Positions 6,153-33,938 of a DNA stretch of 64,000 bases are shown here, piece by piece. The first letter of the stretch is position 1. Each line of letters opens with the position of its first letter. The DNA comes from a virus. Position numbers and translations under genes: made by a program. The notes under the pieces were generated by a model. It did not search any database, was not told where the DNA came from, and worked only from the letters and a program-made list of their open reading frames with translations. The stretch lies in IMG/VR virus record IMGVR_UViG_3300037493_005727, positions 69,091-133,090 of that record; one strand, written 5' to 3'.

Positions 6153-8879
6153 TTACCCGCAACCCGTGGTCGAGCCACAAGAGACGCAAACCCAACAACT
6201 ACCGGCGCGAACCGTCAAATTTCCGCAGCTACGACACGGGTCTCCGTGCATGCTAGACGGTGGAAGGACTGGAGTGGGGGCTGAGGAACTCTCCTTAGGC
6301 GCCTGAGGAAGCAGGAACCGGATCTCCATCCACTTCGCTAGGTAATCGGCGATAGAATCGGCTCGAGGGATCTCCTTATTGCCGGTGAATCCGGAGGGCT
6401 CAAAACGAACGCCACGGAACTTCTCAAGGAGCGTACCCAGCGGTACTCCGTACTGGAGTCCTACTGAGATCGCCGTAGCAGCCATATCCACCAGGCCGTG
6501 AAGGGTTGAGCCTGCCTTTGAGATCGAAAGGAAGACTTCCCCAGGGGTACCATCATCATTCAGCCCTGCGTGAATGTAGCCATCTTGGCCCGCGATACTG
6601 AACTTATGGGTCACACTCATCCGCTCATCTGACAGACGCTTACGCTCGCCCCACCGAAGGTGCGACTTGCCTTCCTCGAACTCTTTGATGGTCTTCTTCA
6701 AGGCGCTCTTGAGCTCTTCTGACTGCTCTGCGTCGAGCGTCTTGGCTTCTTCTTTCTTGCTCGTCTTGGCGGACACAGGCTGGCTCGCCTTGCAGCCGTC
6801 GCGGTAGATGGCCACGCACTTCAGGCCAAGTTCCCACGACCGCATGTACGCATTGGCGACGTCACCGACGGTAGCGCTGTTCGGCATGTTGACGGTCTTG
6901 CTGATGCCGCCACTGAGGAACGGCTGAACGGCGGCCATCATCAGCAGGTGTCCATCGGTGCTGATCTGGTCAGAGCCGATGGCCGTCTGGAAGACCTTGC
7001 GGTGAGCGGGGCTGAAGATGGGAGGAGAGTGCGTCCCTTCCAGGTCAGCCATGAGCATCTCGAGGTCTGAGTTCACGTAACCAAGGTTACGCGCTGCATC
7101 TACGGCGATACGGTTCGGCATCTTCACGTAGCCACCACCGACGAGCTTCTTGTGCTGCACCAGCGCCAACATCGGCTCGATGCCCGTCGTGTCGCAGTCC
7201 ATCATGAAGCCGATGGTGCCTGTGGGAGCCAGCACTGAGATCTGGCTGTTGCGGTAGCCGTTCTGCTTGCCTGCTGCGAGAGCGGCGGACCACTCCTCGT
7301 TGGCCATGCGGATCGTCGTGTGGTGGCGCTGCGGAAGCTTCTCCGACGCCTCCTTGTGCATCTCGATGACGTTGAGCATCGCCTGCTTGTTGTCGGCGTA
7401 GTAGTCGAACGCACCGACGGACTGAGCCATGATGGCGCTCATCTTATAGCCCGTCGCGGTCATCAGCGACGTGAGGCCTGCAGCGAACTCACGACCCTCA
7501 GGAGAGTCGTAAGCGAGCCCCTTCACCATCAGCAGCGAGCCGAGGTTCGCGTAGCCAATCCCCAGCGGGCGAGAGGCCTTGGTGTGCTTGGTGATCTGCG
7601 GCGTGGGATAGTCGGCCATCCCACAGAGGATCTCCATCGCTACGATGCAGACTTCAGTGGCCTTGGAGAAAGCCACTGCATCGAACTCGGATCCAGGTCC
7701 CTTGATGAACTTGAGCAGGTTAAAGCTGCCCAGGTTGCACGACGTGTCGTCGAGGTGCAGAAACTCCGAGCACGGGTTGCTGCTGTTGATGCGGCCGGTG
7801 TTGGGGAGTGTGTGCCACTTGTTCGTAGTGGTGTCGAACTGGATTCCGGGGTCACCGCTAGCCCAAGTCGCCTTAGCAATCTCATCCCACAGCTCCCGTG
7901 CCTTGTACGTGTGGACTGTCTCGTTGGTGGTGCGTGACTTCGTCTGAAACGCCTGGTCGTCGATGACCTTGCGCATGAAGAAGTCGGTCACACGAACGGA
8001 GTTGTTGGCGTTCTGGAACGGCGACAGATCGTAGGCGTTGCCCGGCTGGTTGAACTCAGCGCTGAAGCCTGCAGCGATGAGCGCCTGTGCGATCTTCTCT
8101 GCTTCGGTCTTGCAGTGAATGAAGCCAGGCTGGCCGTTTGCCTGTACGAGGATGTCGGGATGGTCCGCGTTCAGCACGACCATCTTGGCAGCGCGCCGCG
8201 TGGTGCCGCCCGACTTGGTGACGCCAGCCCCTGAGTCGAGCCAGCGCATGAAGCTCACCGGGCCTGAGGGCGTGCCGCCACCTGAGAGCGTCTCGTAGCT
8301 ACTACGGATCTTGGAGAGGTTGCTCCCTGCGCCAGAGCCACCCTTGAACAGCTTGATCTCGGTGCGTCCGAGCTCGGTGATGCTCTCCATCGTATCTTCG
8401 ACGCCGTTGATGAAGCAGGCACTCGCCTGCTGAGATACGCCGGGGACGCCGATGTTGAACCACACCGGAGAGTTGAAGGCGAACATCTGGTGCAGCAGCA
8501 TGTACGTGAGCTCCTGCTCGAACACGAGAGAGGTCTCGAGAGAGAGGAGGAACTGCTCGTAGCCCGCTTTCGCGATGGTGTGCGCCACACGAGTGACGAG
8601 CTGCTTGACAGAGTTCTCCTTCACTCCGTTGACGACGCGGAAGTACTTCTCGGCGACGATGTTGACGGCCCTGTCGCTCCAGGACTCCGGCGCCTCGACG
8701 TCCTTCTGCTCGAAGACTGCTTCACCCTTGGCGTTCTTGATGCTGGCGTCGCGCTTCGTCCACTTCACGGAGTCGAACGGGTGACCGTGCTTGCTGAAGT
8801 ACAGATCAAAGGAGAGAGAAGACTTTGTGGGGATGACAGATGCTTGCCCTTCGTTCGAAGGGGTAACTTGCACGTCCAT
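6153..8879 (-). CDS. nrdJ: ribonucleotide reductase, class II (adenosylcobalamin-dependent) large subunit
   Basis: 908 aa. NPCSEFLHLDDTSCNLGSFNL is the RNR active-site NPC(G/S)E...C-N-L loop. The C-terminal Cys-rich tail CRSCGNL...CWVCVSCG is typical of class II RNRs. No partner small-subunit gene is visible nearby. Confidence 0.88.
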   Translation of the reverse strand: MDVQVTPSNEGQASVIPTKSSLSFDLYFSKHGHPFDSVKWTKRDASIKNAKGEAVFEQKDVEAPESWSDRAVNIVAEKYFRVVNGVKENSVKQLVTRVAHTIAKAGYEQFLLSLETSLVFEQELTYMLLHQMFAFNSPVWFNIGVPGVSQQASACFINGVEDTMESITELGRTEIKLFKGGSGAGSNLSKIRSSYETLSGGGTPSGPVSFMRWLDSGAGVTKSGGTTRRAAKMVVLNADHPDILVQANGQPGFIHCKTEAEKIAQALIAAGFSAEFNQPGNAYDLSPFQNANNSVRVTDFFMRKVIDDQAFQTKSRTTNETVHTYKARELWDEIAKATWASGDPGIQFDTTTNKWHTLPNTGRINSSNPCSEFLHLDDTSCNLGSFNLLKFIKGPGSEFDAVAFSKATEVCIVAMEILCGMADYPTPQITKHTKASRPLGIGYANLGSLLMVKGLAYDSPEGREFAAGLTSLMTATGYKMSAIMAQSVGAFDYYADNKQAMLNVIEMHKEASEKLPQRHHTTIRMANEEWSAALAAGKQNGYRNSQISVLAPTGTIGFMMDCDTTGIEPMLALVQHKKLVGGGYVKMPNRIAVDAARNLGYVNSDLEMLMADLEGTHSPPIFSPAHRKVFQTAIGSDQISTDGHLLMMAAVQPFLSGGISKTVNMPNSATVGDVANAYMRSWELGLKCVAIYRDGCKASQPVSAKTSKKEEAKTLDAEQSEELKSALKKTIKEFEEGKSHLRWGERKRLSDERMSVTHKFSIAGQDGYIHAGLNDDGTPGEVFLSISKAGSTLHGLVDMAATAISVGLQYGVPLGTLLEKFRGVRFEPSGFTGNKEIPRADSIADYLAKWMEIRFLLPQAPKESSSAPTPVLPPSSMHGDPCRSCGNLTVRAGSCWVCVSCGSTTGCG

Positions 8880-8891
8880 GAATCACCTTGG

Positions 8892-9446
8892 TTATGTGGA
8901 AATGGTGTTCGCTGAGTAAGAGACCAGCGAGATCTTCTTGTCTGTGTCCCGTAGCTTCTTCAATACTTCGAGCTCAGAGCGGGTTGTCCCCTTGTTGAGG
9001 TGGAAAGACCGCGCTACTTGAGCGAGACCGAATGCGTCGCAGATGTCATCCTGCGCAAAATCTTGCCCCCACTTCTTGAGTACTGCTTGACGCATCTGCT
9101 CTTTTTTAGCTTGACCGTGATCTGCCACGAACTGCTTCAACGACGCAGGCGGAACGATGATGAAAGGAACGGCGGCGTCGTGGAGAACGAGCTTCACCAC
9201 TGCGCCGACTTCGCCGAGCTCGAACACCCGCCCAGCGCCAACATCGTAGGCGTAGCCCTCGAGCGCGGCGTACTTGATGTCAGGCTCTGCGGCCAAGACG
9301 TCACGCAGCGCGTCGCGAATGCAGGCCAAGCGCGGCGCCCCTGTACGCTTCCCAGGGGTCACCGTCCCGGCGTACACGACCTCTTGATTCTCTGAAACTA
9401 CTGCTACCCCGGAACTGCGCAGCGACTGGTCAATTCCAAGGTACAT
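8892..9446 (-). CDS. RuvC-like Holliday junction resolvase
   Basis: MYLGIDQSLRSSGVAVV (RuvC motif I, GID-S), YAALEGYAY, and DICDAFGLAQVA (the terminal catalytic Asp region). Confidence 0.8.
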   Translation of the reverse strand: MYLGIDQSLRSSGVAVVSENQEVVYAGTVTPGKRTGAPRLACIRDALRDVLAAEPDIKYAALEGYAYDVGAGRVFELGEVGAVVKLVLHDAAVPFIIVPPASLKQFVADHGQAKKEQMRQAVLKKWGQDFAQDDICDAFGLAQVARSFHLNKGTTRSELEVLKKLRDTDKKISLVSYSANTIST

Positions 9447-9458
9447 GCGACTCCTAGC

Positions 9459-9674
9459 TTAGGCCCAGTGCTGCTTCACGGCGAGTCGAAGATTCCCTTC
9501 AGCTTCTCGCAAAAGTTCAGCGTCCCCAAAGTCCATTGCCTCGACGTAGTGACGCGCACAGTCAGCGAGGCAACGCTGCATCAGATCTTGGCGACCTGGG
9601 TGAATGTCCGCGAGATTGCGCTCATCGTTCTGGATGTAGCGCTGCAAGACGTCCCGGCGAGAGAGCTCAGTCAT
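9459..9674 (-). CDS. hypothetical protein
   Basis: 71-aa ORF chained in the operon. Confidence 0.4.
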   Translation of the reverse strand: MTELSRRDVLQRYIQNDERNLADIHPGRQDLMQRCLADCARHYVEAMDFGDAELLREAEGNLRLAVKQHWA

Positions 9675-9879
9675 CTTTCCTCACAACGTCCCGCGGGTCC
9701 AAAAGAAGAACCTTCACCTTCCCAGGCTCGTTGCCATCAACTTCCAGCGTTGCGTTGCCGTAGACATGGAGGTCCATCGACATCGACTGAGCGAAGCTTG
9801 CCTGCTTCAGCTTGTCGCGAATGAAATCGGCGCCGATTCCGCCAAGCTCTGCCCACAAGCGCTTGCGCCACCCACTCAC
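9667..9879 (-). CDS. hypothetical protein (start uncertain)
   Basis: 70-aa ORF. It overlaps the 3' part of the 9737..10021 ORF, so one of the two boundaries is wrong, or an internal start at ~9780 is used. Confidence 0.3.
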   Translation of the reverse strand: MSGWRKRLWAELGGIGADFIRDKLKQASFAQSMSMDLHVYGNATLEVDGNEPGKVKVLLLDPRDVVRKDD

Positions 9880-10021
9880 CTGGGGTCAGCGGATCCCAGG
9901 CCGTCGCTTCGAAGAGACACTTGTCCTGGACGTGTTCGTCCGCTGTTTTCTCGCAGTGGCGACACGTCGGGACAAAGTTCTCGATGACTTCGTCGTGAAT
10001 CCTGGTTTGCTTCTGGCTCAT
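9737..10021 (-). CDS. small CxHC...KCLF-motif protein (paralog family, member 2)
   Basis: PTCRHCEKTADEHVQDKCLFEATAWD. Internal Met chosen to give an ATGA overlap with the upstream paralog at 10018-10021. The C-terminal extent is uncertain. Confidence 0.4.
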   Translation of the reverse strand: MSQKQTRIHDEVIENFVPTCRHCEKTADEHVQDKCLFEATAWDPLTPGEWVAQALVGRAWRNRRRFHSRQAEAGKLRSVDVDGPPCLRQRNAGS

Positions 10022-10221
10022 TTCTTCAGCTTCCGGGAGACGGCAAAGGTACTCGCGTCGAAAAGGCATTTCTCTTCCTCACCAACGTGGTCTCTCCGAA
10101 TCAGGTCGCAGTGCTTGCACACGGCGAACTGCTCCAATCCCTGCTTCTGCATGTAGACCGGCGTGACCCAGCCCCGCGGCTCACCGGCCAGCTTCTCATC
10201 GCTCACAGAACCTCCTTCCAA
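10018..10221 (-). CDS. small CxHC...KCLF-motif protein (paralog family, member 3)
   Basis: AVCKHCDLIRRDHVGEEEKCLFDASTFA. First gene of the operon, downstream of the iteron-rich gap. Confidence 0.5.
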   Translation of the reverse strand: MEGGSVSDEKLAGEPRGWVTPVYMQKQGLEQFAVCKHCDLIRRDHVGEEEKCLFDASTFAVSRKLKK

Positions 10222-10683
10222 GGGCCCCAGCGGGGCGGTGGGACGACGACCAGACCGGGTTGCGTGCTTGTCCTCAAAACGGGTGTTGCGCCGCCACAGC
10301 GGCCGTCACGGTCACCAGGGTTTTCCGCACGAAGCCATGGTGCCGGACGGCATGCAGACCCGTTTTCGAAGTACGAACATGTAGGCATCGACCATCGAAG
10401 CAGGTATTCAGCACTTTCAATGAGGTGTTCAGCCTTAACTCACTGATTTTCTTCATTACCTGAATACCTGAAGACCACTGAATAGAATTTAACTAAGTTG
10501 TATGTAAGAAATCGTAGCCGTGACCATATGTGTGGCTATCTGACCGCACTCCCTTCGGGACGCTGTAGCGCCTGGGAAAGTTTCCAACCTGGTATTCAGG
10601 GTGTGGTGGCGTCTTCAGGTGTTCAGCTGTTGAATCTCTACGCGGGTTTACGGCTGAACACGACACGCTCAAACCTGAACACG
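10222..10683. repeat. iteron-rich non-coding region (candidate replication origin/regulatory region)
   Basis: ~460 bp without a convincing ORF. At least 9 copies of CTGAA(T/C)AC / GTGTTCAG / GTATTCAG occur in both orientations (10401-10414, 10423-10435, 10456-10485, 10588-10601, 10615-10635, 10652-10664, 10671-10686). The region is AT-richer than its surroundings and contains a CCC-TTCG-GGG tetraloop hairpin at ~10551. It lies immediately 3' of the primase-helicase gene. Confidence 0.5.
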
Positions 10684-12618
10684 TCACTCGCCGGAGGTCA
10701 CTTTTAGAGGATCTACTGTTGCGAGAGCCTCTTCTAGTTTTTTATCGATGTTATCGGGCTTAGGTGAAGGAACAATGGCGAGGTCCGGGCGATTCTGCAT
10801 GCCAGGGCTAATCCATAGATTACCTTCTTCGGTGTGTTTCTTGACGTAACCACACACTTTAAGGGCGTACGCCATACGCGCTTGTTGTCCTCTGTCGTGA
10901 CAGTCCTTCCCTGTCAAACCGGCAACGGCTTCGAGGAGCTCGTGGATTCGCAGGGCGTCAGTGTTCTTCGCCGCGGCGTGTAGCCCCTGCTTGGCCACCT
11001 TCTTGTCGGTGATGGCGTTACGTAGCCACGCCTTCAAGGGCTCGACGTAGGGCTCGGTCTCGGTGAACTGTTCGTTGAACTTCGCCCTAAACTTGTCCTG
11101 CTCCACGCTCAGCCACCAACGATGCGTCGTGCACCGAGTCTCCCCATCCACCGCCATCTTGCAATCAGCGCACGTCGCCGCAGCGTTGTAGAGAGCCATG
11201 GCCTGCGCCCACAGCTGCGACTTGATCGACTCTACGTAGAGGATGTTGGTCTTTTGAGTCTCGTCCTCCACGACAATGATCCAAAAGCGTCGAGATCCCG
11301 TCGCATCCTTGAGAAACGTATCGTCGTTCGTGGAGCCCACGAAGATGCACCACCGAGGGTTCTTCGTCATCGCTTTCCCATAGGGAAGACGAAGGTCATC
11401 ACTCCGGTCCGTGATCTCACCTTTGACCTGATGGACCTCCTTCTTGTGCATGGCGCTGAGCTCAGCGATCTCTATCCACGTGTTCTGGATGAACGCCATG
11501 CGAGAGTCCTTCGAACCGAACTCGATGTGCGTCGCTGAGAAGCGGCCCGCTGGGGCGAGGGCACGAAACAGCGAGGACTTCTTGGTGCCTTGTGCTGATT
11601 TCAGCACGAGCATCGTGTCCATCTGACAACCTGGGTCGAAAGTGCGTGCGACCGTTCCGATCAGGGTCTTCGTGAGCTGCGTGAGCGCTAACGCGTTCGT
11701 CTGCTGCGTCCACTCCAACGTTTTTCCATCGAGACCCGTCTCCTCTTTCCACCCGCCAATGGCCTTCAGCAGAGGAAGCATGTAGTCGTTGCCATCCCAC
11801 GCGGGGAGTTGGTTGAACCACTCTCGCGCCGGGTGAAACTTGTTCTTGCGGGCGATAGCTTCAATGGCTTGCTGCACGTAGGCCTCGCTTGGAACGAAGC
11901 GGCGCATGCCGCGACGTCCCGGTGTGGGGACGGCGTAGGTCCGAGCAATGGACATACGGATATCACTCGTCGTGACTGCGTCTTCAGCGCGAACTCGATT
12001 GACTGTGATGCAGCAGTCCATCTCGTTCCACTCGAGTTTTCCTCCGACGAGTTCGGGGTCCAGCAGAATCAATGTGACCAAGCAGTAGTAATCGTCAGTG
12101 AGATCCCCGTTCTCCATGCAGGACCCGAACGTCTTACTCTTCACCCAACGAGCCAGCGAGTCGATGCCTACCGGCTCACCGCCACGATGCATGCCCAGCT
12201 TTCGCAGCAGCGCGAACTCAACGTCCGCAGCAGAGGCGGCATCGAAGATGCTGTCGCACAAAGGCTCGAGGAGGAGCTGCCCCTGCGTGAGGACGCCAGC
12301 GTAGTGGGCCTTGAAGTCAACCTTCGCCTTCGCGAGGAGTACGGGATCTTTACCCGCAAAAAACTTGAGGACCCCGGCAAGCTTCTCCAAAACTGGAGGT
12401 TGCGCGGGGTCCGGTGGGGGAAATGTTTTGGGGCCGCTGGGAGGAAGCCCTGAGGCTTGTCTCGCTGCTGCTGCCGATGCAATCTTGTCTGCTTCTACTT
12501 CCAACATCCATTGTGTCTTTTCCCCCTTCGACACTATGAATGCTTCGCTGTGGAATGTTGTTGAGACCAACATCTCCCGCAACTCTGCTGGACTCGGAAC
12601 CGGCATCCCGTCCCCCAA
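10684..12618 (-). CDS. primase C-terminal/D5-like SF3 helicase (VirE / P4-alpha-like replicative helicase)
   Basis: 644 aa. IFVGSTNDDTFLKDATGSRRFWIIVVED matches the VirE/D5 C-terminal motif (...RRFW.I.V). There is a Walker-type NTPase region upstream, and the gene sits directly after the Prim-Pol gene. Confidence 0.75.
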   Translation of the reverse strand: MGDGMPVPSPAELREMLVSTTFHSEAFIVSKGEKTQWMLEVEADKIASAAAARQASGLPPSGPKTFPPPDPAQPPVLEKLAGVLKFFAGKDPVLLAKAKVDFKAHYAGVLTQGQLLLEPLCDSIFDAASAADVEFALLRKLGMHRGGEPVGIDSLARWVKSKTFGSCMENGDLTDDYYCLVTLILLDPELVGGKLEWNEMDCCITVNRVRAEDAVTTSDIRMSIARTYAVPTPGRRGMRRFVPSEAYVQQAIEAIARKNKFHPAREWFNQLPAWDGNDYMLPLLKAIGGWKEETGLDGKTLEWTQQTNALALTQLTKTLIGTVARTFDPGCQMDTMLVLKSAQGTKKSSLFRALAPAGRFSATHIEFGSKDSRMAFIQNTWIEIAELSAMHKKEVHQVKGEITDRSDDLRLPYGKAMTKNPRWCIFVGSTNDDTFLKDATGSRRFWIIVVEDETQKTNILYVESIKSQLWAQAMALYNAAATCADCKMAVDGETRCTTHRWWLSVEQDKFRAKFNEQFTETEPYVEPLKAWLRNAITDKKVAKQGLHAAAKNTDALRIHELLEAVAGLTGKDCHDRGQQARMAYALKVCGYVKKHTEEGNLWISPGMQNRPDLAIVPSPKPDNIDKKLEEALATVDPLKVTSGE

Positions 12619-12745: not shown

Positions 12746-13771
12746 CTACCGTCTAGGTATTCTGCTCCACCACGCCAACCTCGCGGAGTGCAACAGGTTC
12801 TTCGCGTCGGTCGGGTACACGTAGTCTGGGGGCATCCCCGAACGAACCATGTGCTCGAACGACATCGGCCCGTAAGTGGCCGCCACTGTTATGGAGTCCG
12901 TGAAGACCCGGTCGGTCTCCCCCGGCTTGTACCCGGAATACTCCGAGGAGATTTCGTGGAAGGCCTCACGGGCAATATCCATGAGATCAGGATGGCCGAG
13001 ACACGCACAAGCGAGATTGGTTGCGAACCCTCGCCACGTCTCGCGATCAACTTCGTCAGGGTTCTCCCGCATCCACTGAGTCATCTGGCACTCTTTGGAC
13101 AGCATGTCCTCGAGCAGGAACTTGGCCTCAGCCTTCGGCGTGCCCGCTGAATGCAATCCTTGCTTCTCCTCGAGGTTCCCCGCGGGGCTCTTGCGGGGTG
13201 GCTGCTTGACGAGCTTCAGCAGCCAGTCGGGCGCCACAGCCAGCTCTGCATCGGCTGGCCCGTTCTGCCAGTTGTAGCGTCGTCCGCTCTTGTGGAGTGA
13301 ACCGGCGCCCACGACGTAACCCCCATCTCCTCGCGTATCAAGCCCCGCACCCAGAGCACCGGCGGTGTTGCGGTAGTCGGGGCCAGGGAACTGGAAGTAG
13401 AAGTGAAGTCCTCCGGAGCCGGTACGAACTGAGAGAGTCTTCGGAAGCGGTGCATTCTTCTGCTCCAATTCTGCGAGGGTCTCGACGCCGCCATTCTTCG
13501 GGTCAACGTCGAGCACCCAGATGCCTGAGCGAATGCCCGTCGCAATGCCGAACCCGTCGTTGGGCCACTTCTCCCACATGGCAGGCGTCCCGGCTTCCTT
13601 CGACCAGGCGATACGAGGGTGCTTCCCCATGTTGGGGCACGTCTCGTCTTGACAGTCGCACCGAGGGGTCTCTGTACCCATCCCCAAGATCTGGCGAATG
13701 GGGAAGATGTGGTACTTCAGCTTCTCGATGTAGTACGTCGCAACACCGACTCCGAAGGGGACGCTCATCAC
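12746..13771 (-). CDS. bifunctional DNA primase/polymerase (Prim-Pol, AEP family)
   Basis: GKHPRIAW, GIATGIRSGIWVLDVDPKNGG, TGSGGLHFYF and GDGGYVVGAGSLHKSGRRYNW follow the Prim-Pol N-terminal domain pattern (catalytic DxD, SGG-H-YF, and the G-D-RG-GGYVV-P-S-H-G-Y-W motif). Confidence 0.8.
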   Translation of the reverse strand: MMSVPFGVGVATYYIEKLKYHIFPIRQILGMGTETPRCDCQDETCPNMGKHPRIAWSKEAGTPAMWEKWPNDGFGIATGIRSGIWVLDVDPKNGGVETLAELEQKNAPLPKTLSVRTGSGGLHFYFQFPGPDYRNTAGALGAGLDTRGDGGYVVGAGSLHKSGRRYNWQNGPADAELAVAPDWLLKLVKQPPRKSPAGNLEEKQGLHSAGTPKAEAKFLLEDMLSKECQMTQWMRENPDEVDRETWRGFATNLACACLGHPDLMDIAREAFHEISSEYSGYKPGETDRVFTDSITVAATYGPMSFEHMVRSGMPPDYVYPTDAKNLLHSARLAWWSRIPRR

Positions 13772-18950: not shown

Positions 18951-19091
18951 AGGGCTCCGAACAAACTACCCCCGCGAGCGCTATCACACGCTCAGCGGGG
19001 AGGCCTTTCGGCCTTCTGTGAATTTGGGGTGGACGGTGATAGACGTCCAGAGACACCACTTCTCTACTCTTCTCTTGTACCACAAGCAACG

Positions 19092-19100
19092 CCTATACTT
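19092..19100 (+). promoter_or_regulatory. CTATACT box (-10-like), 9 nt upstream of ATG 19109
   Basis: gCCTATACTTgaggcgcaATG. One of five copies of this motif; see the finding on it. Confidence 0.45.
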
Positions 19101-19108
19101 GAGGCGCA

Positions 19109-19513
19109 ATGGCCGCCAGTATCACCCACACGCAGACTCGTACGGACACGGTGCCTCCGGTACCGGACGTGTACCCGAGCATCCCTAACACCCTGGATGC
19201 CAAGTACCGCGTCGTCGACGTTGTAACGGCCACGGTCAACATCGACCCTGAAGTCTTCGTGTACCGCTACAGCGACTGGGTGTTCGATCACGTAGCTACC
19301 GTGCTGGACATGGAGCAGATCCAAGAACTTACGCCAACTCCCGGCGCACCGTTTTACCGCCAGAACTACGTGGTGAGGGACTTCGCGAGTGAGAGCCAGG
19401 CCGCCGCCTTCGCAGAGGAACTGATCTCTCGAATGGAACGTCTGGCGTTGGAATACGTGTTGTACCCGTCGACGTTCGTTGGTACGACGACCGGTACGCT
19501 CCCTCCCCCGTAG
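19109..19513 (+). CDS. hypothetical protein, tandem paralog A
   Basis: 134 aa. VFVYRYSDWVFDHVATVLDM...PFYRQNYVV...LISRMERLALEY aligns with the next gene (LFTYRFSDGLYDHVSTTVDL...PFYRQSTVS...VESRLTSLAKEY). Confidence 0.6.
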   Translation: MAASITHTQTRTDTVPPVPDVYPSIPNTLDAKYRVVDVVTATVNIDPEVFVYRYSDWVFDHVATVLDMEQIQELTPTPGAPFYRQNYVVRDFASESQAAAFAEELISRMERLALEYVLYPSTFVGTTTGTLPPP

Positions 19514-19515
19514 CG

Positions 19516-19524
19516 CTCTATACT
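19516..19524 (+). promoter_or_regulatory. CTATACT box (-10-like), 8 nt upstream of ATG 19533
   Basis: gCTCTATACTgaggaactATG. Confidence 0.45.
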
Positions 19525-19532
19525 GAGGAACT

Positions 19533-19898
19533 ATGGCAGCCACGGTCATCAACTACACGCTGGTTCAGAGCACCATCCCGGGTCCCCCGGCGCAGTATCA
19601 GGTGCAGGCGACGATCAACACATCGCCAAACACCGGCACGTCGCTGTTCACGTACCGCTTCAGTGACGGCCTGTACGATCACGTGTCTACTACCGTGGAC
19701 CTGATGACGTACCCGACCGCGGCCAATCCTTCCTTCCCGTTCTACCGGCAGTCGACGGTGTCCTTTTTGTCCCAGAACGCAACCGAGGCCATCGACTTCT
19801 CCGCGATGGTCGAGTCTCGCTTGACGAGCCTGGCGAAAGAGTACGACGCAGTCGCGACGACCTTCGTGCCTGGTACGTACCCCATCGTTGTTCCGTAA
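19533..19898 (+). CDS. hypothetical protein, tandem paralog B
   Basis: 121 aa, homologous to 19109..19513 as described there. Confidence 0.6.
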   Translation: MAATVINYTLVQSTIPGPPAQYQVQATINTSPNTGTSLFTYRFSDGLYDHVSTTVDLMTYPTAANPSFPFYRQSTVSFLSQNATEAIDFSAMVESRLTSLAKEYDAVATTFVPGTYPIVVP

Positions 19899-19907
19899 GG
19901 ACGCACC

Positions 19908-21062
19908 ATGGCAACTACCCTCGGCCAGCACTGCACCGTCTTCCTGGACGTCGATGGGATCCAGCGGTTCAAGATCGTCTCCAGCGTCGACTCGGTCGAG
20001 GCGGGGGACCTCCCGCTCCACGGCGCCGCTCCGTACACCTCGTACATCTTCGTTCACAAGATCGTCGAGCCCACGGACGCCAAGGCTGACACGTTCCTTC
20101 GGGTTGGCAATGTCGCCGACCTCACCACCATCGCCATTGGGCGTGAGCTCGCGGTAGGCCTCGGGCAGTCGCTGTACCTGGCTATCGAGTTCACCGTCAT
20201 CTACGACGACATCGCCACGGCGAGCCAGGCGAAGACGCTCATTCAGCAGCGAGTCGACAACCTCATCGCCGACTGGCACAAGTACAACGAGGAGTTCCTC
20301 GCCCCTCTGACGACTCCGCCGGATCTCTCAACCATTCCCTTCCCGCTCACCCAGAGCGAAGAGGATGAACGCAAAGCAGCGTACGACGAGGCTCACGCAG
20401 AGCTCCTGGCGGCCAAGGCCGACTCCGCCCTCGCGGCGGTCGAAGCCTCGGCGTCCATCTCAGCGGCGGCTACCTGCAACGACGTCGCGTCCATCACCGT
20501 CGCGAACAGCCAAGAGTGCAGCAAGCTGCTGGGACAGTACAACGGCATCGTCACGGCTGAAGACGCCTTCCGCGGCGCTGTCACCTCATTCGCTCCGTCG
20601 GCGGTCACCTTCTCCGACGCATCGTTGGTCTTCTTCAACGCGTGTACGGCCTACCAGACGGCGAGCGCAACGTACATCAGCTACGGCATCACGCCGACTA
20701 CTCCACAGCGCCAGGCGTTCATGGATGCCAAGCTCACCTGGGATAACGCCCTCACCGCTTGGAACAATGTGCGGGTAACGTTCAACGCCGCGGGCCTCAA
20801 CTCGGCCATCGCAGCTGAGTCCATCAACGGCGCTCCCGCCATGGCGACTCTTCAGACCGACATGTCTAAGGCCTGCACGACAAAGATCTCCGAGGTCACG
20901 GCCGCTGCAAGCAAAAAAACAGAGTGCGACAAGGCGGCGGCCGAGGCCACGACCGCAAAGAAGGCAGCCGACGAAGCTCTGTCGGCCGCCCTCCTCGCAG
21001 ATACGCAAGCCTACCTCGAGGTCAAGGCCCTGTGCCCTGAGTTTGAACGCACTGTCCCGTAG
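19908..21062 (+). CDS. Ala/Thr/Ser-rich hypothetical protein (possibly virion-associated)
   Basis: 384-aa ORF. The opposite-strand ORFs (19518..20279-, 20586..21008-) are Arg/Gly-rich artefacts. Confidence 0.5.
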   Translation: MATTLGQHCTVFLDVDGIQRFKIVSSVDSVEAGDLPLHGAAPYTSYIFVHKIVEPTDAKADTFLRVGNVADLTTIAIGRELAVGLGQSLYLAIEFTVIYDDIATASQAKTLIQQRVDNLIADWHKYNEEFLAPLTTPPDLSTIPFPLTQSEEDERKAAYDEAHAELLAAKADSALAAVEASASISAAATCNDVASITVANSQECSKLLGQYNGIVTAEDAFRGAVTSFAPSAVTFSDASLVFFNACTAYQTASATYISYGITPTTPQRQAFMDAKLTWDNALTAWNNVRVTFNAAGLNSAIAAESINGAPAMATLQTDMSKACTTKISEVTAAASKKTECDKAAAEATTAKKAADEALSAALLADTQAYLEVKALCPEFERTVP

Positions 21063-29274: not shown

Positions 29275-30551
29275 GCCGTTTCCATCGGGTCTTTGCTCTT
29301 ACCCCGCCCGTGAATCTTCTTCTCTTGTTCGTCGTGAATCCGGTTGATGCGGTCGTTGATCTCCTTCCACAACGGGTACTGGCGATTCGCGACCGTGAGG
29401 TCCTGCATGTACTTCAGGTTCTTCGGTTCCCCGATTCCCCCATGAGCTTGACAGGCTGCGTCGAGCATGGCGTAGAACGGCTGCGCCTGCTCCACCGGCA
29501 TGTCATGCCAGAACTGAACGAGCTGCGGCGCGATGGTCTGGGGCTCAGGCCGTTCACGGAAGATGAACTGCGCGACCTCGTTGACCAGGCTGGTGTAGTC
29601 CCCGCCCGCCTCCTTCTGGAGGTCCAGAACACGAGAGCGGAGCTTGCTCTTCGGCTTGTAGTCGTAGAGCACCGCCTCCGGGGAGATGATGATCTCGTTG
29701 TTCTTGATGAAGGCGCAGAGCGTCTGCGCATTCACGGTGTTGATTGAGGCAGCCAGGCGGAGCTCAGCTTTCTCGCTGTGCAGGTCCACCTTCGCCGCCT
29801 CGAGGTTGTAGAGGGACAGCGAGACCGTCTGCCACGTGGCCGGGCAGGCGAACTGCTTGTTTCCGTCTCGGTCCTTGGCGGTGTACAACATCGCCGGTGT
29901 GGCAGTGAGCAGGCGCACCACCATGGGGTGGCAGGGGCGCCCGCCCTCGAAGTCCGTGTAGTGGAACTCCGGCGTGAGCGCGTGCTTCTTCCAGTCGCTG
30001 AACGTGTTGTACACGTACGCCTTCATCAGGCGGCGATTGAACGCCGAGTTGGTCTCGATCTTCGTGACGTTGTACCCCGCCGTTGAGGGATTCATCAGCG
30101 CGACAATGACGCAGTCGTCTGGTAGGGTGTAGTCGTAGATTCCCCGGTCCTCGAGGAACTTGAAGAACAGAGCGATTGCGTGCTGCTGCCCCTGGTTGAT
30201 TTCATCGAAGATGAGGATGCACTTCTCCCCCTGCTTGGGGTAGTCGTTCGGGATAGCGATCTTGAAGTGTCCCGTTTCATCTGCCCTCTGCGGAACACCG
30301 GCTCCGATCATGGAGAACTGCGACGTGCGAATGTCTACGACCCGCCTTCCGTGCTTCCGAGCGAGCTGGTGAATGCCCTGCGACTTCCCTTCTCCGGCTT
30401 CCGAGATGAGGCACCAAACCCCGCGGGTCTGCTCCATCTCGATGCTGAGGTCGATCTGCCACAGCGCTTCTGTCAGGGTCATGCGCGGGATTCCATAGCG
30501 ATCCCAGTACGCTTCTCCGTGAACGACTTTGTCCTGTGCTGCGTTGCTCAT
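29271..30551 (-). CDS. MoxR-like AAA+ ATPase
   Basis: ISEAGEGKSQGI (Walker A-like GxxGxGKS), ILIFDEINQGQQH (Walker B DE plus sensor), ALMNPSTAGYN...AFNRRL (MoxR/CbbQ-type arginine finger region). Confidence 0.8.
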   Translation of the reverse strand: MSNAAQDKVVHGEAYWDRYGIPRMTLTEALWQIDLSIEMEQTRGVWCLISEAGEGKSQGIHQLARKHGRRVVDIRTSQFSMIGAGVPQRADETGHFKIAIPNDYPKQGEKCILIFDEINQGQQHAIALFFKFLEDRGIYDYTLPDDCVIVALMNPSTAGYNVTKIETNSAFNRRLMKAYVYNTFSDWKKHALTPEFHYTDFEGGRPCHPMVVRLLTATPAMLYTAKDRDGNKQFACPATWQTVSLSLYNLEAAKVDLHSEKAELRLAASINTVNAQTLCAFIKNNEIIISPEAVLYDYKPKSKLRSRVLDLQKEAGGDYTSLVNEVAQFIFRERPEPQTIAPQLVQFWHDMPVEQAQPFYAMLDAACQAHGGIGEPKNLKYMQDLTVANRQYPLWKEINDRINRIHDEQEKKIHGRGKSKDPMETA

Positions 30552-30574
30552 GTCTGCCTCTTTGGTGGTGGTGT

Positions 30575-32191
30575 ATGACTCAAATGAACATCGGCACGAA
30601 GCGGTTGTCGGAAGTCGCAGAGGGTCTGCTCTGGCTGGACGGCGCCCCGTTCAGCTTGGATGACTACCCGATGTACCGGAACATCTACGACGGACGCTAC
30701 AAAGCGACTCTCCTGATGTGTGGCCGACAGGTGGCCAAGTCGACATCCCTGGCGAACTTCATCATCTCGGAGTCTGTCGCTCTTCCGTTCTTCCGGTCCT
30801 ACTACGTCTCTCCTTCAAAAGAGCAGACGCTGATCTTCTCTAACACACGTGTGGGTAAGACGCTTTCGTACTCCCCCATTGTGAAGAAGTTCTTCCAGTC
30901 CCCGGAGCACGCAGACCGCGTGCTTCACCGCTCGTACACCAACGGATCCGAGAACGCGTTCACCTACGCCTGTGATGACGCCGACCGCGCTCGAGGCTTC
31001 TCAGCTGATCGAGTCAGCTACGACGAGTTCCAGGACATGCTGTACGACTCAGTGGTTCCCGTCATCAACGCCTGCATGAAGAACTCGAACTACCGCTTCG
31101 AGACCTACGCAGGAACGCCGAAGACGATGGAAGCCAGCATCCAGTACCTCTGGGACAAGTCGTCTCAGAGCGAGTGGGTGATGAAGTGCGACGGCTGCTC
31201 GAAGTACAACTTCGTCGTCGACGAGAAGTCCCTAGGACTGCACGGGCCCATCTGCCTCAACTGCGGTAAGGTGCTCAACCCCCGTATCGGGCAGTGGGTC
31301 GACATGAAGAAGGTCGATTCCAAAACCGGGAGACACTCGGTGAAGGGGTTTCACATCCCCCAGCTGATCATGCCTCTGAACATCCCGTCTTGCGTGAACA
31401 ACACGCCGGAAAAGCCGGATGCCAAAAAAGACGCTCAAGAGCGTTGGGACGACATCCTTCGAGACCACGACATGTTCTCGTCGGCGAAGTTTCGCAACGA
31501 GGTGTTGGGAGTCTCTGACGCCATCGGTCGTCGTCTCATCTCTCTCGAGGAGCTTGAGGCTCTTTGTACGGGCCCTAAGATTTCAGCGTACCCCGACAAG
31601 AATCTCGAGGGATGCACCGTCACCTTCGCCGGGGTGGACTGGTCTGGCGGCGGGACCACTGGAGTAAGCCGCACCGTGCTTTGGATCTGGGGCTGGCACC
31701 CCGGCAGTCAGAAGCTACGGACGCTGTACTACCGCATCTACCCTGGCAACAACGCCGTCACGGACGTCGAGGACATCGCCAAGATTTGTCAGCAGTACTC
31801 AGTCGCTCTGGTTGTCGGAGACGCTGGAGAAGGCGCTCTGCCTAACGCCACCCTTCGCGCTCGCCTTGGTGCCCACCGAGTGACGATGGTGCAGTACGGC
31901 GCGCTGGGCCAGCCCATCAAGTGGAACGGTCTCGACCGATACTTGGCTGACCGAACCACGCTGATCGACAACTACCTCATGTTCCTGAAGAGAGGCGCGG
32001 TGGTCTACCCGCCACAGGAAGAGGCGCGGGAAGCCATCAAGGACATCCTCAACGTCTACGAAGAGGTGACCACCGCGGGCAAGAAGGTGTGGAGGCACAG
32101 CCCACAACTCCCAGATGATTGTCTCCACGCCCAGCTCTTTGGGTGGTTCGCCTCGAAGATTCACATGAACGACCTTAAGTTCTACGCTTAA
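30575..32191 (+). CDS. terminase large subunit
   Basis: LLMCGRQVAKSTSLANF (Walker A) and the T7 gp19-like ATPase/nuclease layout (...FQDMLYD..., DAGEG). The track ORF begins at 30536, but that would overlap the divergent MoxR start (30551). The Met at 30575, after GGTGGTGG, is preferred; the Met at 30584 is also possible. Confidence 0.75.
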   Translation: MTQMNIGTKRLSEVAEGLLWLDGAPFSLDDYPMYRNIYDGRYKATLLMCGRQVAKSTSLANFIISESVALPFFRSYYVSPSKEQTLIFSNTRVGKTLSYSPIVKKFFQSPEHADRVLHRSYTNGSENAFTYACDDADRARGFSADRVSYDEFQDMLYDSVVPVINACMKNSNYRFETYAGTPKTMEASIQYLWDKSSQSEWVMKCDGCSKYNFVVDEKSLGLHGPICLNCGKVLNPRIGQWVDMKKVDSKTGRHSVKGFHIPQLIMPLNIPSCVNNTPEKPDAKKDAQERWDDILRDHDMFSSAKFRNEVLGVSDAIGRRLISLEELEALCTGPKISAYPDKNLEGCTVTFAGVDWSGGGTTGVSRTVLWIWGWHPGSQKLRTLYYRIYPGNNAVTDVEDIAKICQQYSVALVVGDAGEGALPNATLRARLGAHRVTMVQYGALGQPIKWNGLDRYLADRTTLIDNYLMFLKRGAVVYPPQEEAREAIKDILNVYEEVTTAGKKVWRHSPQLPDDCLHAQLFGWFASKIHMNDLKFYA

Positions 32192-33709: not shown

Positions 33710-33938
33710 TCTTGGCCTGGTACATCGAGACTATGTGCTTTCGCTGCACACAGGTTTTGGGTGAAATGATCAGTGACTTGCGGTCGTGCTTGATGAGTCT
33801 CCCCGTCAAGCAGCCACCTGTCACGGTGAACACCTTTACGAGGGTGTCTTTCCACTCATCGAGGATGTCATCCTGGATCGGCTTATACTTCGGCAAGCGC
33901 GGTTCGGACTTCTTCCTCCGTGTAGGCTTCGGCGGCAT
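33597..33938 (-). CDS. questionable small ORF overlapping the pol/exonuclease junction
   Basis: 113-aa ORF. Its N-terminal half (KVFTVTGGCLTGRLIKHDRKSLIISPKTCVQ) looks protein-like, but it overlaps the exonuclease gene by >100 nt and its tail is G/A/P-rich. It may be an overprinted gene, a frameshifted C-terminus, or an artefact. Confidence 0.2.
   Translation of the reverse strand: MPPKPTRRKKSEPRLPKYKPIQDDILDEWKDTLVKVFTVTGGCLTGRLIKHDRKSLIISPKTCVQRKHIVSMYQAKNAPDKQAAGPAVRGHGNDGAGPHEARTAGSGSDPHKP

Follow-up and report, generated by a model that had tools for sequence, protein, structure and literature searches.

A probable SaPI-like replication origin beside the Rep1-like helicase gene of a clade of uncultivated large phages

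The region 10404-10682 of the 64-kb stretch of viral DNA analysed here (the window) is most likely a replication origin of an already known type, served by the helicase whose gene adjoins it. We hold this reading with good confidence because the layout of the region matches that of the origins used by the related and experimentally studied Rep helicases of the SaPI satellites (Staphylococcus aureus pathogenicity islands); at the level of sequence, every item of the published SaPI origin description is present at this locus. A first-pass annotation had interpreted the gap beside the primase and helicase genes as a candidate origin, and this interpretation is now indirectly supported by the homology of the helicase to Rep1, by positional conservation combined with concerted change of the repeated word, and by local enrichment of that word. 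The origin may extend into the conserved distal stretch as far as 10222.

This would be the first origin described for an uncultivated clade with genomes of ~180-196 kb, whose nearest isolates share only ~30% terminase identity, and it would mean that the pri-rep-ori arrangement of small satellites and plasmids is also used by large phages. The module of about 3.6 kb, composed of the Prim-Pol gene, the Rep1-like helicase gene and a cis site of ~300-480 bp, provides a directly testable minimal replicon that could aid vector building or host prediction. The 16 orthologous arrays, in which the geometry is kept while the words drift, constitute a data set on how the winged helix of a hexameric helicase reads iterons.

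Gene context of the gap

The placement given in the first-pass annotation is correct: the gap lies between the stop codon of the VapE/D5-like helicase gene and a small minus-strand ORF, with the Prim-Pol gene directly upstream of the helicase gene (Table 1), an order that is the same in every relative. The downstream ORF probably begins at GTG 10206, and the gap would therefore span 10207-10683 and not 10222-10683, as first annotated. It is followed on the same strand by a cluster comprising small genes, RuvC and class II ribonucleotide reductase. The phage also carries an RNA-polymerase-beta-like gene and seemingly encodes its own RNA polymerase. A scan of the window revealed no tRNA or tmRNA, and no DGR-type repeats are present near the reverse transcriptase gene. 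No match was obtained when the 4-kb region was compared at the nucleotide level with 50,697 phage records, or when IMG/VR was scanned with the helicase and with an 18-mer from the array. Scanning bacterial genomes retrieved relatives at <= 37% identity only, which therefore give no clue to the host.

Table 1. Features of the gap and of the flanking genes, in window coordinates
Feature	Position	Strand	Basis or remarks
First gene past the gap, Cys-containing protein of ~62 aa	10018..10206	-	probable start GTG 10206; GGAGG at 10211-10215
GC-rich distal gap part, 170 bp	10222..10392	-	block-conserved across relatives (alignments)
Distal outer iteron pair GTATTCAG, GTGTTCAG	10404-10411, 10425-10432	-	21 bp apart; pointing outward from centre
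IHF-like site AATCAGTGAGTTA	10436..10448	-	12/13 positions of WATCAANNNNTTR; between distal triplet and distal outer pair
Distal inner iteron triplet CTGAATAC, CTGAAGAC, CTGAATAG	10460-10467, 10468-10475, 10478-10485	+	facing centre
Least stable duplex in the gap, candidate unwinding element	10476..10517	.	nearest-neighbour stability and AT profile; within AT island 10413-10533
Central element, at the array's dyad axis (~10543)	10521..10549	.	alignments of relatives
Conserved block TTGGAAACTTTCC (TTTCGAAACTTC in relatives)	10574..10589	-	alignments; adjoins innermost proximal iteron
Proximal inner iteron triplet GTATTCAG, GTCTTCAG, GTGTTCAG	10592-10599, 10611-10618, 10619-10626	-	facing centre
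Proximal outer iteron pair CTGAACAC	10654-10661, 10675-10682	+	21 bp apart; pointing outward from centre
Candidate initiator-helicase, 644 aa, VapE/D5-like SF3	10684..12618	-	homolog of SaPI1 Rep1
Prim-Pol (archaeo-eukaryotic type primase-polymerase) gene	12746..13771	-	Pfam Prim-Pol E 1.1e-37; PHROG DNA primase

A mirror array of ten short sites

At least nine copies of CTGAAYAC and its complement had been noted in the gap. The exact count is seven, and it rises to ten sites in 279 bp once the one-mismatch variants CTGAAGAC (two copies) and CTGAATAG (one copy) are counted. The whole window holds ten exact copies (3.0 +/- 2.0 expected), of which seven lie inside 10404-10682 and only three elsewhere, so that the word does not occur at similar density in the rest of the 64 kb. 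Any other 290-bp segment contains at most one exact or three one-mismatch words, and by Poisson statistics such an enrichment has a probability of about 2e-17 for the exact sites, or 8e-13 if one mismatch is allowed.

All ten sites together make up a mirror array, [<< >>>] centre [<<< >>], that begins 1 nt past the helicase stop codon (10684-10686). There are five sites per side, in both orientations on each side: an outer pair with 21-bp spacing and an inner triplet, the two triplets being separated by a centre of ~105 bp. The mirror symmetry extends to a 24-nt arm (10611-10634) that is 83% complementary to the arm of the distal inner triplet, across 135 nt. The words ACCTGAATACC and GGTATTCAGG, previously described as abutting inverted pairs, are in fact 122 bp apart; the pairs that do abut are direct repeats (10460-10475 and 10611-10626), and they mirror each other across the centre. 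The original repeat observation thus holds for the cluster, its placement and the local rise in AT content, and fails for the inverted pairs and for a tetraloop hairpin discussed below.

Conservation of the array in relatives

We compared the locus with 16 relatives for which DNA is available (metagenomic contigs of up to 196 kb, labelled L001 and so on; 40-86% helicase identity), among which L004 is near-identical to L001. The gap after the helicase gene is kept in 16/16. It measures 447-667 bp between called genes in the ten relatives whose calls leave it free of small ORFs; within the gaps of L002 and L086, ORFs of 52 and 38 aa, respectively, are called. Small genes homologous to the first gene past the gap are called in L001, L002 and L090, and a DUF4031 gene takes this place in other relatives, where the gap is still conserved.

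Most of the 16 relatives retain both the positions of the sites and the 21-bp distance within the outer pairs, the closer ones most clearly; the spacing of the proximal outer pair is conserved, the proximal inner triplet has positional homologs, and the array occupies the same position and register in relatives down to 40-55% helicase identity. The word itself is lineage-specific (CTGACKAC, GTGAAYAC, CTGAACC, CTGACCCC, CTACCCC and others), and several sites change together within a genome. For example, L001 carries CTGACKAC, L005 carries CTGAACCA, and both L003 and L085 carry GGTGTTCAC. An array whose position is kept while its word changes in concert is what one would expect if the sites co-evolve with a single binding protein. 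When 7-mers are counted in the 340 nt past the helicase gene, the most frequent one has few copies elsewhere in the locus in most relatives (for example, 9 vs 1, 7 vs 0 and 6 vs 1), the exceptions being L084, L086 and L089. Among distant loci encoding VapE-type helicases, the most repeat-rich 350-bp window lies directly past the helicase stop codon in 14/47.

The candidate initiator helicase

The protein encoded next to the array matches the Pfam VapE-like domain with E 7.5e-54, and its profile aligns with SaPI1 Rep1 (PDB 7PDS) with E 1.3e-40 over query residues 182-476. Searching with its AF2 model, Foldseek returns 7pds chains as the top six matches (E 3e-19 to 1e-17; target-normalised TM 0.66-0.69 over about 490 columns). 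A CxxC...CxxH motif formed by C483, C486, C496 and H499 is invariant. The C-terminus has a predicted H-H-H-beta-beta topology and retrieves winged-helix DNA binders including 7pds_A; a winged helix is predicted at residues ~555-603, with a recognition helix at 576-588 and a wing at 592-603. Residue 580, located in the predicted recognition helix, varies with position 7 of the iteron: it is A, S or M with words in ..AC and K, R or N with words in ..CC. This correlation could be accounted for by one or two evolutionary events and is imperfect, with L084 and L090 carrying Met together with mixed words. SaPI Reps are reported to diverge faster in the C-terminal domain than elsewhere in the protein; the helicases of this clade show no such difference.

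Other elements of the gap

The locally elevated AT content noted in the first-pass annotation is real and stronger than stated. The island 10413-10533 is the longest and most AT-rich of the 64-kb window, with a peak of 75% AT vs an average of 41%. The AT-rich stretch sits off the dyad axis, on its distal side. Each of the 12 relatives profiled has one too, centre-distally in the gap (12/12), displaced by as much as ~90 nt in those more distantly related. The IHF consensus is perfect at the position homologous to the IHF-like site in 6/16 relatives, against a background of 0.04 per kb. No DnaA box TTATCCACA is found in the gap within one mismatch, and a scan for sigma-70 promoters and terminators detects none there.

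The central element consists of the imperfect palindrome GTGYGG-N8-CCACAC (10530-10549) followed by the near-invariant CACATATGGTCA, the whole 17-mer occupying 10521-10537. The 17-mer has no second copy in the window, even with three mismatches allowed. We considered and discarded a recurring promoter motif in the gap, given that the 17-mer, its 7-8-mers and 12-mers of the distal part are all unrepeated in the window; the conserved blocks of the distal part likewise do not recur elsewhere in it. The conserved centre and the 170-bp distal part are not required by the origin model and, like the off-axis position of the AT-rich stretch, count against it.

The distal part 10222..10392 is noncoding and has no conserved fold (no preferred reading frame; SCI 0.12). 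A structured RNA, searched for in the distal and central blocks on both strands, was rejected on RNAalifold SCI values of 0.12-0.23 and a covariation term of ~0, the short central palindrome excepted; this palindrome is the sole element recovered by RNAalifold and scores better on the + strand of the window. Rfam gives no match with E <= 1 inside the gap when 9500-11500 is searched, the one hit outside the gap being a miRNA family at chance level. The CCC-UUCG-GGG tetraloop hairpin of the first-pass annotation corresponds only to TCCC-TTC-GGGA (10550-10560), with a 4-bp stem and a 3-nt loop, in a segment that is unconserved in relatives. A hidden small gene was also rejected: stop codons interrupt all six frames of the gap and tblastn scores are equal across frames. 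A 7-aa mini-ORF (MTICVAI/F) running over the central block on the + strand was dismissed because neither its start codon nor its length is conserved.

Proposed mechanism

We propose that replication initiates at this array through the adjoining helicase. The anatomy of the array, its conservation, the joint change of its word across lineages and the homology of the helicase are established here; from that homology to the SaPI Reps we infer iteron binding, melting, double-hexamer loading and priming as follows. The C-terminal winged helix of the 644-aa Rep1-like SF3 helicase would recognise the 8-10 bp word (C/G)CTGAAYACC, and the ten-site mirror array would gather protomers at both sides of the centre. 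With protomers gathered on both sides, two hexamers could load in opposite orientation without a separate loader. The duplex would open in the adjoining AT-rich stretch, at about 10476-10517, and a host bending protein may assist at the IHF-like site. The Prim-Pol from the gene just upstream would lay the first primers, which the phage DNA polymerase (gene at 33883-36798) would extend.

The cumulative GC skew, named in the first-pass annotation as a check, lends no support to an origin here: within the window it reaches its lowest point at about 49-50 kb, at a switch of the coding strand, and there is no inflection at 10.5 kb. We take the skew as uninformative and not as refuting, because roughly a third of a genome of ~180-196 kb is covered by the window and the skew follows the direction of transcription. 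Additional origins may exist in a ~190-kb phage, or its replication may be largely recombination-dependent.

Alternative explanations

Clustered sites next to a gene cluster could also be an operator array, in which the ten words bind a transcription regulator of the phage instead of the helicase, a promoter in the gap drives the downstream operon, and the conserved centre and GC-rich distal part act as promoter and leader. The gap does lie 5' of the next same-strand gene cluster, its centre and distal 170 bp are conserved without coding, and a concerted change of words would suit any cognate DNA-binding protein. The lack of a sigma-70-like promoter or terminator in the gap speaks against such a function, although the RNA-polymerase-beta-like gene means that phage promoters need not look sigma-70-like, and a promoter of another type in the gap is possible. 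However, a phage promoter type should recur, and neither the central 17-mer nor the AT island has a counterpart elsewhere in the 64 kb. The array moreover stays put though the downstream gene varies among relatives, and ten sites in a 290-bp mirror array starting at the stop codon of a Rep1 homolog reproduce a documented origin layout item by item. We regard a purely regulatory role as unlikely; operator function would in any case be compatible with an origin, many origins being also transcribed. Other DNA-handling sites are built from clustered short repeats too, namely packaging (pac) sites and partition centromeres. P1 pac consists of two hexamer clusters flanking the cut site, and the two repeat clusters on either side of ~100 bp, together with the adjacent IHF-like site, bear a superficial resemblance to P1 pac and P1 parS. 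The large terminase subunit gene (30536-32191) is nevertheless 20 kb away, no ParA/ParB-like gene is found among the neighbours scanned, and in all relatives the site accompanies the Prim-Pol and helicase genes, not packaging genes. As repeats also follow the helicase gene directly in the 14/47 distant loci, a packaging or partition site appears most improbable.

The terminal inverted repeats of the array could suggest a selfish, MITE-like repeat element, or a chance cluster, with no role for the phage. This reading is contradicted by the conservation of the array, at the same position and register down to 40-55% helicase identity; the element is present as a single copy in 64 kb and the enrichment has P ~1e-17, leaving this explanation a practically negligible chance. 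A further candidate is a stem-loop origin of the pRN1 type, in which a large imperfect inverted repeat would be extruded as a hairpin or cruciform and iteron recognition would play no part. The halves of the array pair together when folded as single strands, and replication of pRN1, and of some phages in which one replication protein unites prim-pol, SF3 helicase and winged helix, depends on a stem-loop of ~100 nt lying 3' of the gene for that protein (PMC4234260). The fold, however, is within the range of shuffled sequences (z -1.43 and -1.84), the complementarity is limited to the iteron words themselves, and a plain stem needs neither both orientations in each half nor a conserved 21-bp phasing. 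An extruded stem-loop as the operative element is thus very unlikely.

Returning to the SaPI-like origin, we see a small chance that the element exceeds this type and is an undescribed origin module, because the conserved palindrome GTGYGG-N8-CCACAC, CACATATGGTCA and the GC-rich 170-bp segment are unneeded by the SaPI model. The additional parts could, for example, be a specific site at which the separate Prim-Pol starts, or an element in cis through which origin firing is coupled with transcription by the phage RNA polymerase. If so, the replication start of an uncultivated ~190-kb phage clade would be defined, with a double-hexamer loading geometry recalling eukaryotic viral SF3 origins.

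Comparison with known replication systems

In SaPIs, the origin follows rep immediately and contains 6-12 short iterons. These fall into two sets flanking an AT-rich centre, and on each side at least two of them point in opposite directions; they are bound by the C-terminal winged helix of Rep, and pri is found upstream of rep (PMC9371898). Rep1 and PriRep5 of SaPI are self-loading initiator-helicases (PDB 7PDS, 7OLA; PMC9371898). The locus described here shares a helicase homologous to Rep1 by sequence and fold, an upstream primase gene, an array right after the stop codon whose ten short iterons form two sets flanking an AT-rich region, at least two of them opposed per side, a predicted C-terminal winged helix and a lineage-specific iteron word. 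It differs in belonging to a lytic-type metagenomic phage genome of ~180-196 kb vs a 15-kb satellite, in words of 8-10 bp vs 5-6 bp, and in the presence, on either side, of words in both orientations and of an outer pair fixed at 21 bp. Further differences are the palindrome on the dyad axis, the off-centre AT-rich stretch, the extra conserved GC-rich 170 bp, an additional ~170 aa at the N-terminus of the helicase together with the CxxC...CxxH motif, and a primase of the Prim-Pol type.

The iteron origins of plasmids (pPS10, R6K, RK2, pSC101) place initiator sites beside an AT-rich unwinding element, sometimes with IHF sites, and the specificity of their iterons co-evolves with the initiator (PMC4980987). 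Their iterons, 17-22 bp long, are repeated directly and all point the same way, DnaA boxes are usual, and Rep is a non-helicase with two winged-helix domains, the host DnaB helicase being loaded (PMC4980987). The gap resembles them in its repeated candidate initiator sites next to an AT-rich element and in the IHF-like site. It departs from the RepA/pi/TrfA type in its 8-10 bp words, their two orientations and the lack of a DnaA box, and its candidate initiator is itself a helicase.

In pRN1, ORF904 unites prim-pol, SF3 helicase and winged helix, and a stem-loop origin lies downstream, an arrangement that the authors proposed to extend to bacteriophages (PMC4234260, PMC2777425). Our locus encodes the same three activities, with a candidate cis element directly 3' of the replication gene. 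The pRN1 element, however, is a ~100-nt stem-loop of poorly conserved sequence and without iterons, whereas iterons are present here and the fold is no better than that of shuffled sequences.

SV40 large T and papillomavirus E1 are SF3 helicases that read short words in inverted sets and assemble as two hexamers head to head; in their origins, an AT-rich tract and a palindrome lie beside these words, within a compact core of ~64 bp. Inverted word sets, an AT-rich tract and a palindrome are present here as well. The origin-binding domain of the viral proteins differs in fold and is N-terminal to the helicase, and the sequence relationship is limited to the SF3 core.

The alpha protein of satellite phage P4, an SF3 helicase, binds its origin through a C-terminal winged-helix domain (1KA8; PMC2777425). 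Unlike the genes described here, P4 has its primase, of the DnaG type, and its helicase in one polypeptide, and its ori is not directly past the alpha gene. Alpha is said to recognise octamer iterons in both orientations (TGTTCACC), a result reportedly obtained by Ziegelin et al. in 1993. The SF3 helicase, the predicted C-terminal winged helix and the octamer words in both orientations are thus common to both systems. P4 requires a second cis site, crr, some kb from ori, and no such second iteron cluster is found within the 64-kb window. The word GGTGTTCAC of L003 and L085 even contains TGTTCAC, a resemblance to P4 that is probably coincidental.

An array of sites with mirror symmetry follows the helicase gene

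The gap between the helicase gene and the next minus-strand ORF (Table) lies in phage-like DNA of ~59% G+C, where the minus strand carries most genes from 1 to ~45 kb; genes for a DNA polymerase, a second helicase and the large terminase lie farther along. The word CTGAAYAC (Y is T or C) has ten exact copies in the 64 kb, 7/10 of them within 10404-10682, and allowing one mismatch gives ten sites within 279 bp. Any other 290-bp window of the 64 kb holds at most one exact or three approximate copies, which confirms the local enrichment proposed in the first-pass annotation (Poisson P of clustering, ~2e-17 for exact and 8e-13 for approximate copies); its count of nine or more copies holds with mismatches included, but not for exact words. 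When extended, the consensus is (C/G)CTGAAYACC. From the helicase stop codon, 1 nt from the end of the first site, the array runs as an outer pair pointing back towards the helicase gene (21 bp apart), an inner triplet pointing forward, a centre of ~105 bp, a second triplet pointing back and a second pair pointing forward, again 21 bp apart, with mirror symmetry about ~10543. The core of the earlier observation is real, and some of its details are wrong: the words of the pair quoted as abutting and inverted are 122 bp apart, the truly abutting pairs being direct, and where a CCC-UUCG-GGG tetraloop hairpin was described, 10550-10560 has just a 4-bp stem closing a 3-nt loop, in an unconserved segment.

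The raised AT content reported for the gap is borne out by the AT-rich island. The 17-mer near the axis has no second copy in the window, even at three mismatches. In the central palindrome, the gene-sense strand shows C.A where the plus strand has G.T; any folding would be on the plus strand. The IHF consensus WATCAANNNNTTR is perfect at the homologous aligned position in 6/16 relatives (L002, L003, L084, L085, L087 and L090), with a background of 0.04 perfect matches per kb. No DnaA box is present in the gap. The cumulative GC-skew minimum of the window, proposed earlier as a check, falls at ~49-50 kb with no inflection at 10.5 kb, which by that criterion speaks against an origin. It coincides with the coding-strand switch, and we regard the skew as uninformative because the window covers about one third of the genome and skew follows transcription.

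Table. Features of the gap and its surroundings (window coordinates; distal, farther from the helicase gene)
Feature	Position	Strand	Remarks
Class II ribonucleotide reductase	6153-8879		After RuvC in transcription order
RuvC	8892-9446		After the small ORFs in transcription order
Further small ORFs			Between Cys-containing ORF and RuvC
Small Cys-containing ORF, ~62 aa	10018-10206	-	First gene after gap; likely start GTG 10206 behind GGAGG
Gap	10207-10683		Directly after helicase gene in transcription order
GC-rich segment	10222-10392		Between array and next gene
Site starts	10404, 10425, 10592, 10611, 10619	-
Site starts	10460, 10468, 10478, 10654, 10675	+
AT-rich island	10413-10533		Peak 75% AT; longest and richest of whole window
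IHF-like word	10436-10448	-	12/13 positions; between distal triplet and distal outer pair
Least stable duplex of gap	~10476-10517		Distal to palindrome and 17-mer, inside AT-rich island
17-mer	10521-10537
Imperfect palindrome GTGYGG-N8-CCACAC	10530-10549		On dyad axis; followed by CACATATGGTCA
VapE/D5-like helicase, 644 aa	10684-12618	-	Pfam E 7.5e-54; second, after Prim-Pol
Prim-Pol	12746-13771	-	Pfam E 1e-37; first in transcription order around gap
Direct repeat, 57 nt, 72% identity	19256-19312, 19647-19703		Spans ORFs 19064-19552 and 19518-20279 (both -)
Reverse transcriptase, 398 aa	22520-23716	-	Pfam RVT_1 E 1.4e-16; PHROG polymerase/RT
RNA polymerase beta-subunit-like protein	54490-56289	+	Phage multisubunit type; phrog_3015, E 2.7e-14

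The arrangement is conserved while the word changes

Phage, IMG/VR and bacterial genome collections contain no close-range relatives; the nearest isolates are Salmonella phage Arash and Vibrio phages of ~187 kb (terminase identity ~30%). The protein database holds ~27 full-length helicase homologs (34-86% identity), on metagenomic contigs of up to 196 kb. We compared the DNA of 16 such loci (L001-L007, L009 and L084-L091; L004 is near-identical to L001). The order Prim-Pol, helicase, gap is found in 16/16. In ten loci no small ORF is called in the gap, which there spans 447-667 bp from called gene to called gene; L002 and L086 have ORFs of 52 and 38 aa, respectively, called inside it. In alignment, the ten-site layout, the 21-bp outer-pair spacing and the 35-bp offset to the triplets are clear in closer relatives and fade in the most distant (L088, L089, L007 and L009). 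An AT-rich stretch occupies the centre-distal part of the gap in 12/12 relatives profiled, displaced where the relationship is more distant.

The word varies from lineage to lineage: CTGACKAC (L001, L002), GTGAAYAC (L003, L085), GTGAAYCS (L086), CTGAACC(A/C) (L087, L005, L006, L088), CTGACCCC (L091), GTGAAGGA (L007) and CTACCCC (L009, 40% helicase identity). Within one genome several positionally homologous sites change in concert, which is the behaviour of binding sites tracking one protein; TGAATA is retained clade-wide only at the innermost site pair. For most relatives, the commonest 7-mer of the 340 nt behind the helicase gene has few copies in the rest of the locus (for example 9 vs 1, 7 vs 0, 6 vs 1), a contrast absent in L084, L086 and L089. 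Among much more distant VapE-helicase loci, 14/47 are richest in repeats in the 350-bp window that directly follows the helicase stop, where ~2 are expected at the 5% level (L015, L016, L017, L031, L033, L034, L037, L038, L039, L042, L046, L066, L079 and L082). In these 14 (27-37% identity), a 7-mer occurs 4-10 times in that window, a count that no other window of the locus exceeds, and the helicase-then-iterons arrangement thus seems widespread.

A PF04447 dATP/dGTP pyrophosphohydrolase gene (L089:1-76) lies upstream of the Prim-Pol/helicase module in L089 (helicase P0022), which hints at modified-base metabolism of the 2-aminoadenine type; the domain was not seen among the window ORFs scanned.

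The helicase resembles SaPI initiators

The helicase family profile strongly matches one solved structure, 7PDS, the initiator-helicase Rep1 of Staphylococcus aureus pathogenicity island SaPI1 with DNA (E 1.3e-40). The best fold matches of an AF2 model (pLDDT 82.7) are six 7pds chains (E 3e-19 to 1e-17, ~490 aligned columns, TM 0.66-0.69 normalised to target), followed by the NrS-1 helicase region, the poxvirus E5 and ASFV primase-helicases, and MCM. Between the ATPase core and the predicted winged helix, 27/27 homologs carry an invariant CxxC...CxxH motif (C483, C486, C496, H499), probably a zinc site. A SaPI Rep is an initiator-helicase that loads itself, and a winged helix at its C-terminus binds iterons of five or six nucleotides; these number 6-12 and lie directly 3' of the rep reading frame, at least two on either side in opposite directions and an AT-rich region near their centre, and the primase gene lies upstream of rep (PMC9371898). 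Those features of this list that a sequence can show are all found at the phage locus, the winged helix as a prediction. Residue 580, in the predicted recognition helix, is A/S/M with words ending in ..AC and K/R/N with ..CC; this pairing is suggestive, with few independent changes behind it, and the words are mixed in two relatives that carry Met.

A probable replication origin

In our view the array is probably a replication origin, and likely one of SaPI/P4 type with an SF3 initiator-helicase to serve it; the phages that carry it form an uncultivated clade with genomes of ~190 kb. An array of operators for the downstream operon, which could coexist with an origin, is unlikely, as the repeats follow the helicase and not the downstream gene, and neither the AT island nor the central motif, each of them unique, looks like a recurring promoter type. 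A stem-loop origin like that of pRN1 (PMC4234260) is less probable still and is disfavoured, since shuffled sequence folds comparably well; a pac or partition site is the most improbable, the array being without linkage to packaging or partition genes. Conservation rules out chance or a selfish insertion.

For the favoured SaPI/P4-type origin, we infer a mechanism in which the word would be read by the predicted winged helix of the helicase, and the mirror array would collect protomers on both sides, yielding two hexamers in opposite orientation. The AT-rich stretch would melt, perhaps with the aid of DNA bending at the IHF-like site, with priming by Prim-Pol and extension by the phage polymerase. 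The ten-site mirror geometry and the extra conserved elements of this probable origin are worth experiments.

The GC-rich segment and neighbouring genes

The GC-rich segment is non-coding and conserved in blocks, although the following gene varies among relatives. It contains no reading frame, conserved fold (SCI 0.12, covariation absent), Rfam match, sigma-70 promoter or terminator, and has no copies elsewhere in the window. Given the beta-subunit-like protein, transcription may rely on a polymerase that the phage itself encodes, which makes scans for sigma-70 promoters uninformative. The segment may serve such a polymerase as promoter or leader, or be an auxiliary origin element. A comparison with L003, L085, L087 and L091 shows that the gene following the gap is not constant, coding either for the Cys-rich small protein or for DUF4031; the gap thus marks a module boundary.

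The reverse transcriptase gene lies amid phage replication genes, and no DGR-like template/variable repeat pair of at least 40 nt was found around it (18-28 kb). The two adjoining ORFs spanned by the 57-nt direct repeat are probably tandem paralogs.
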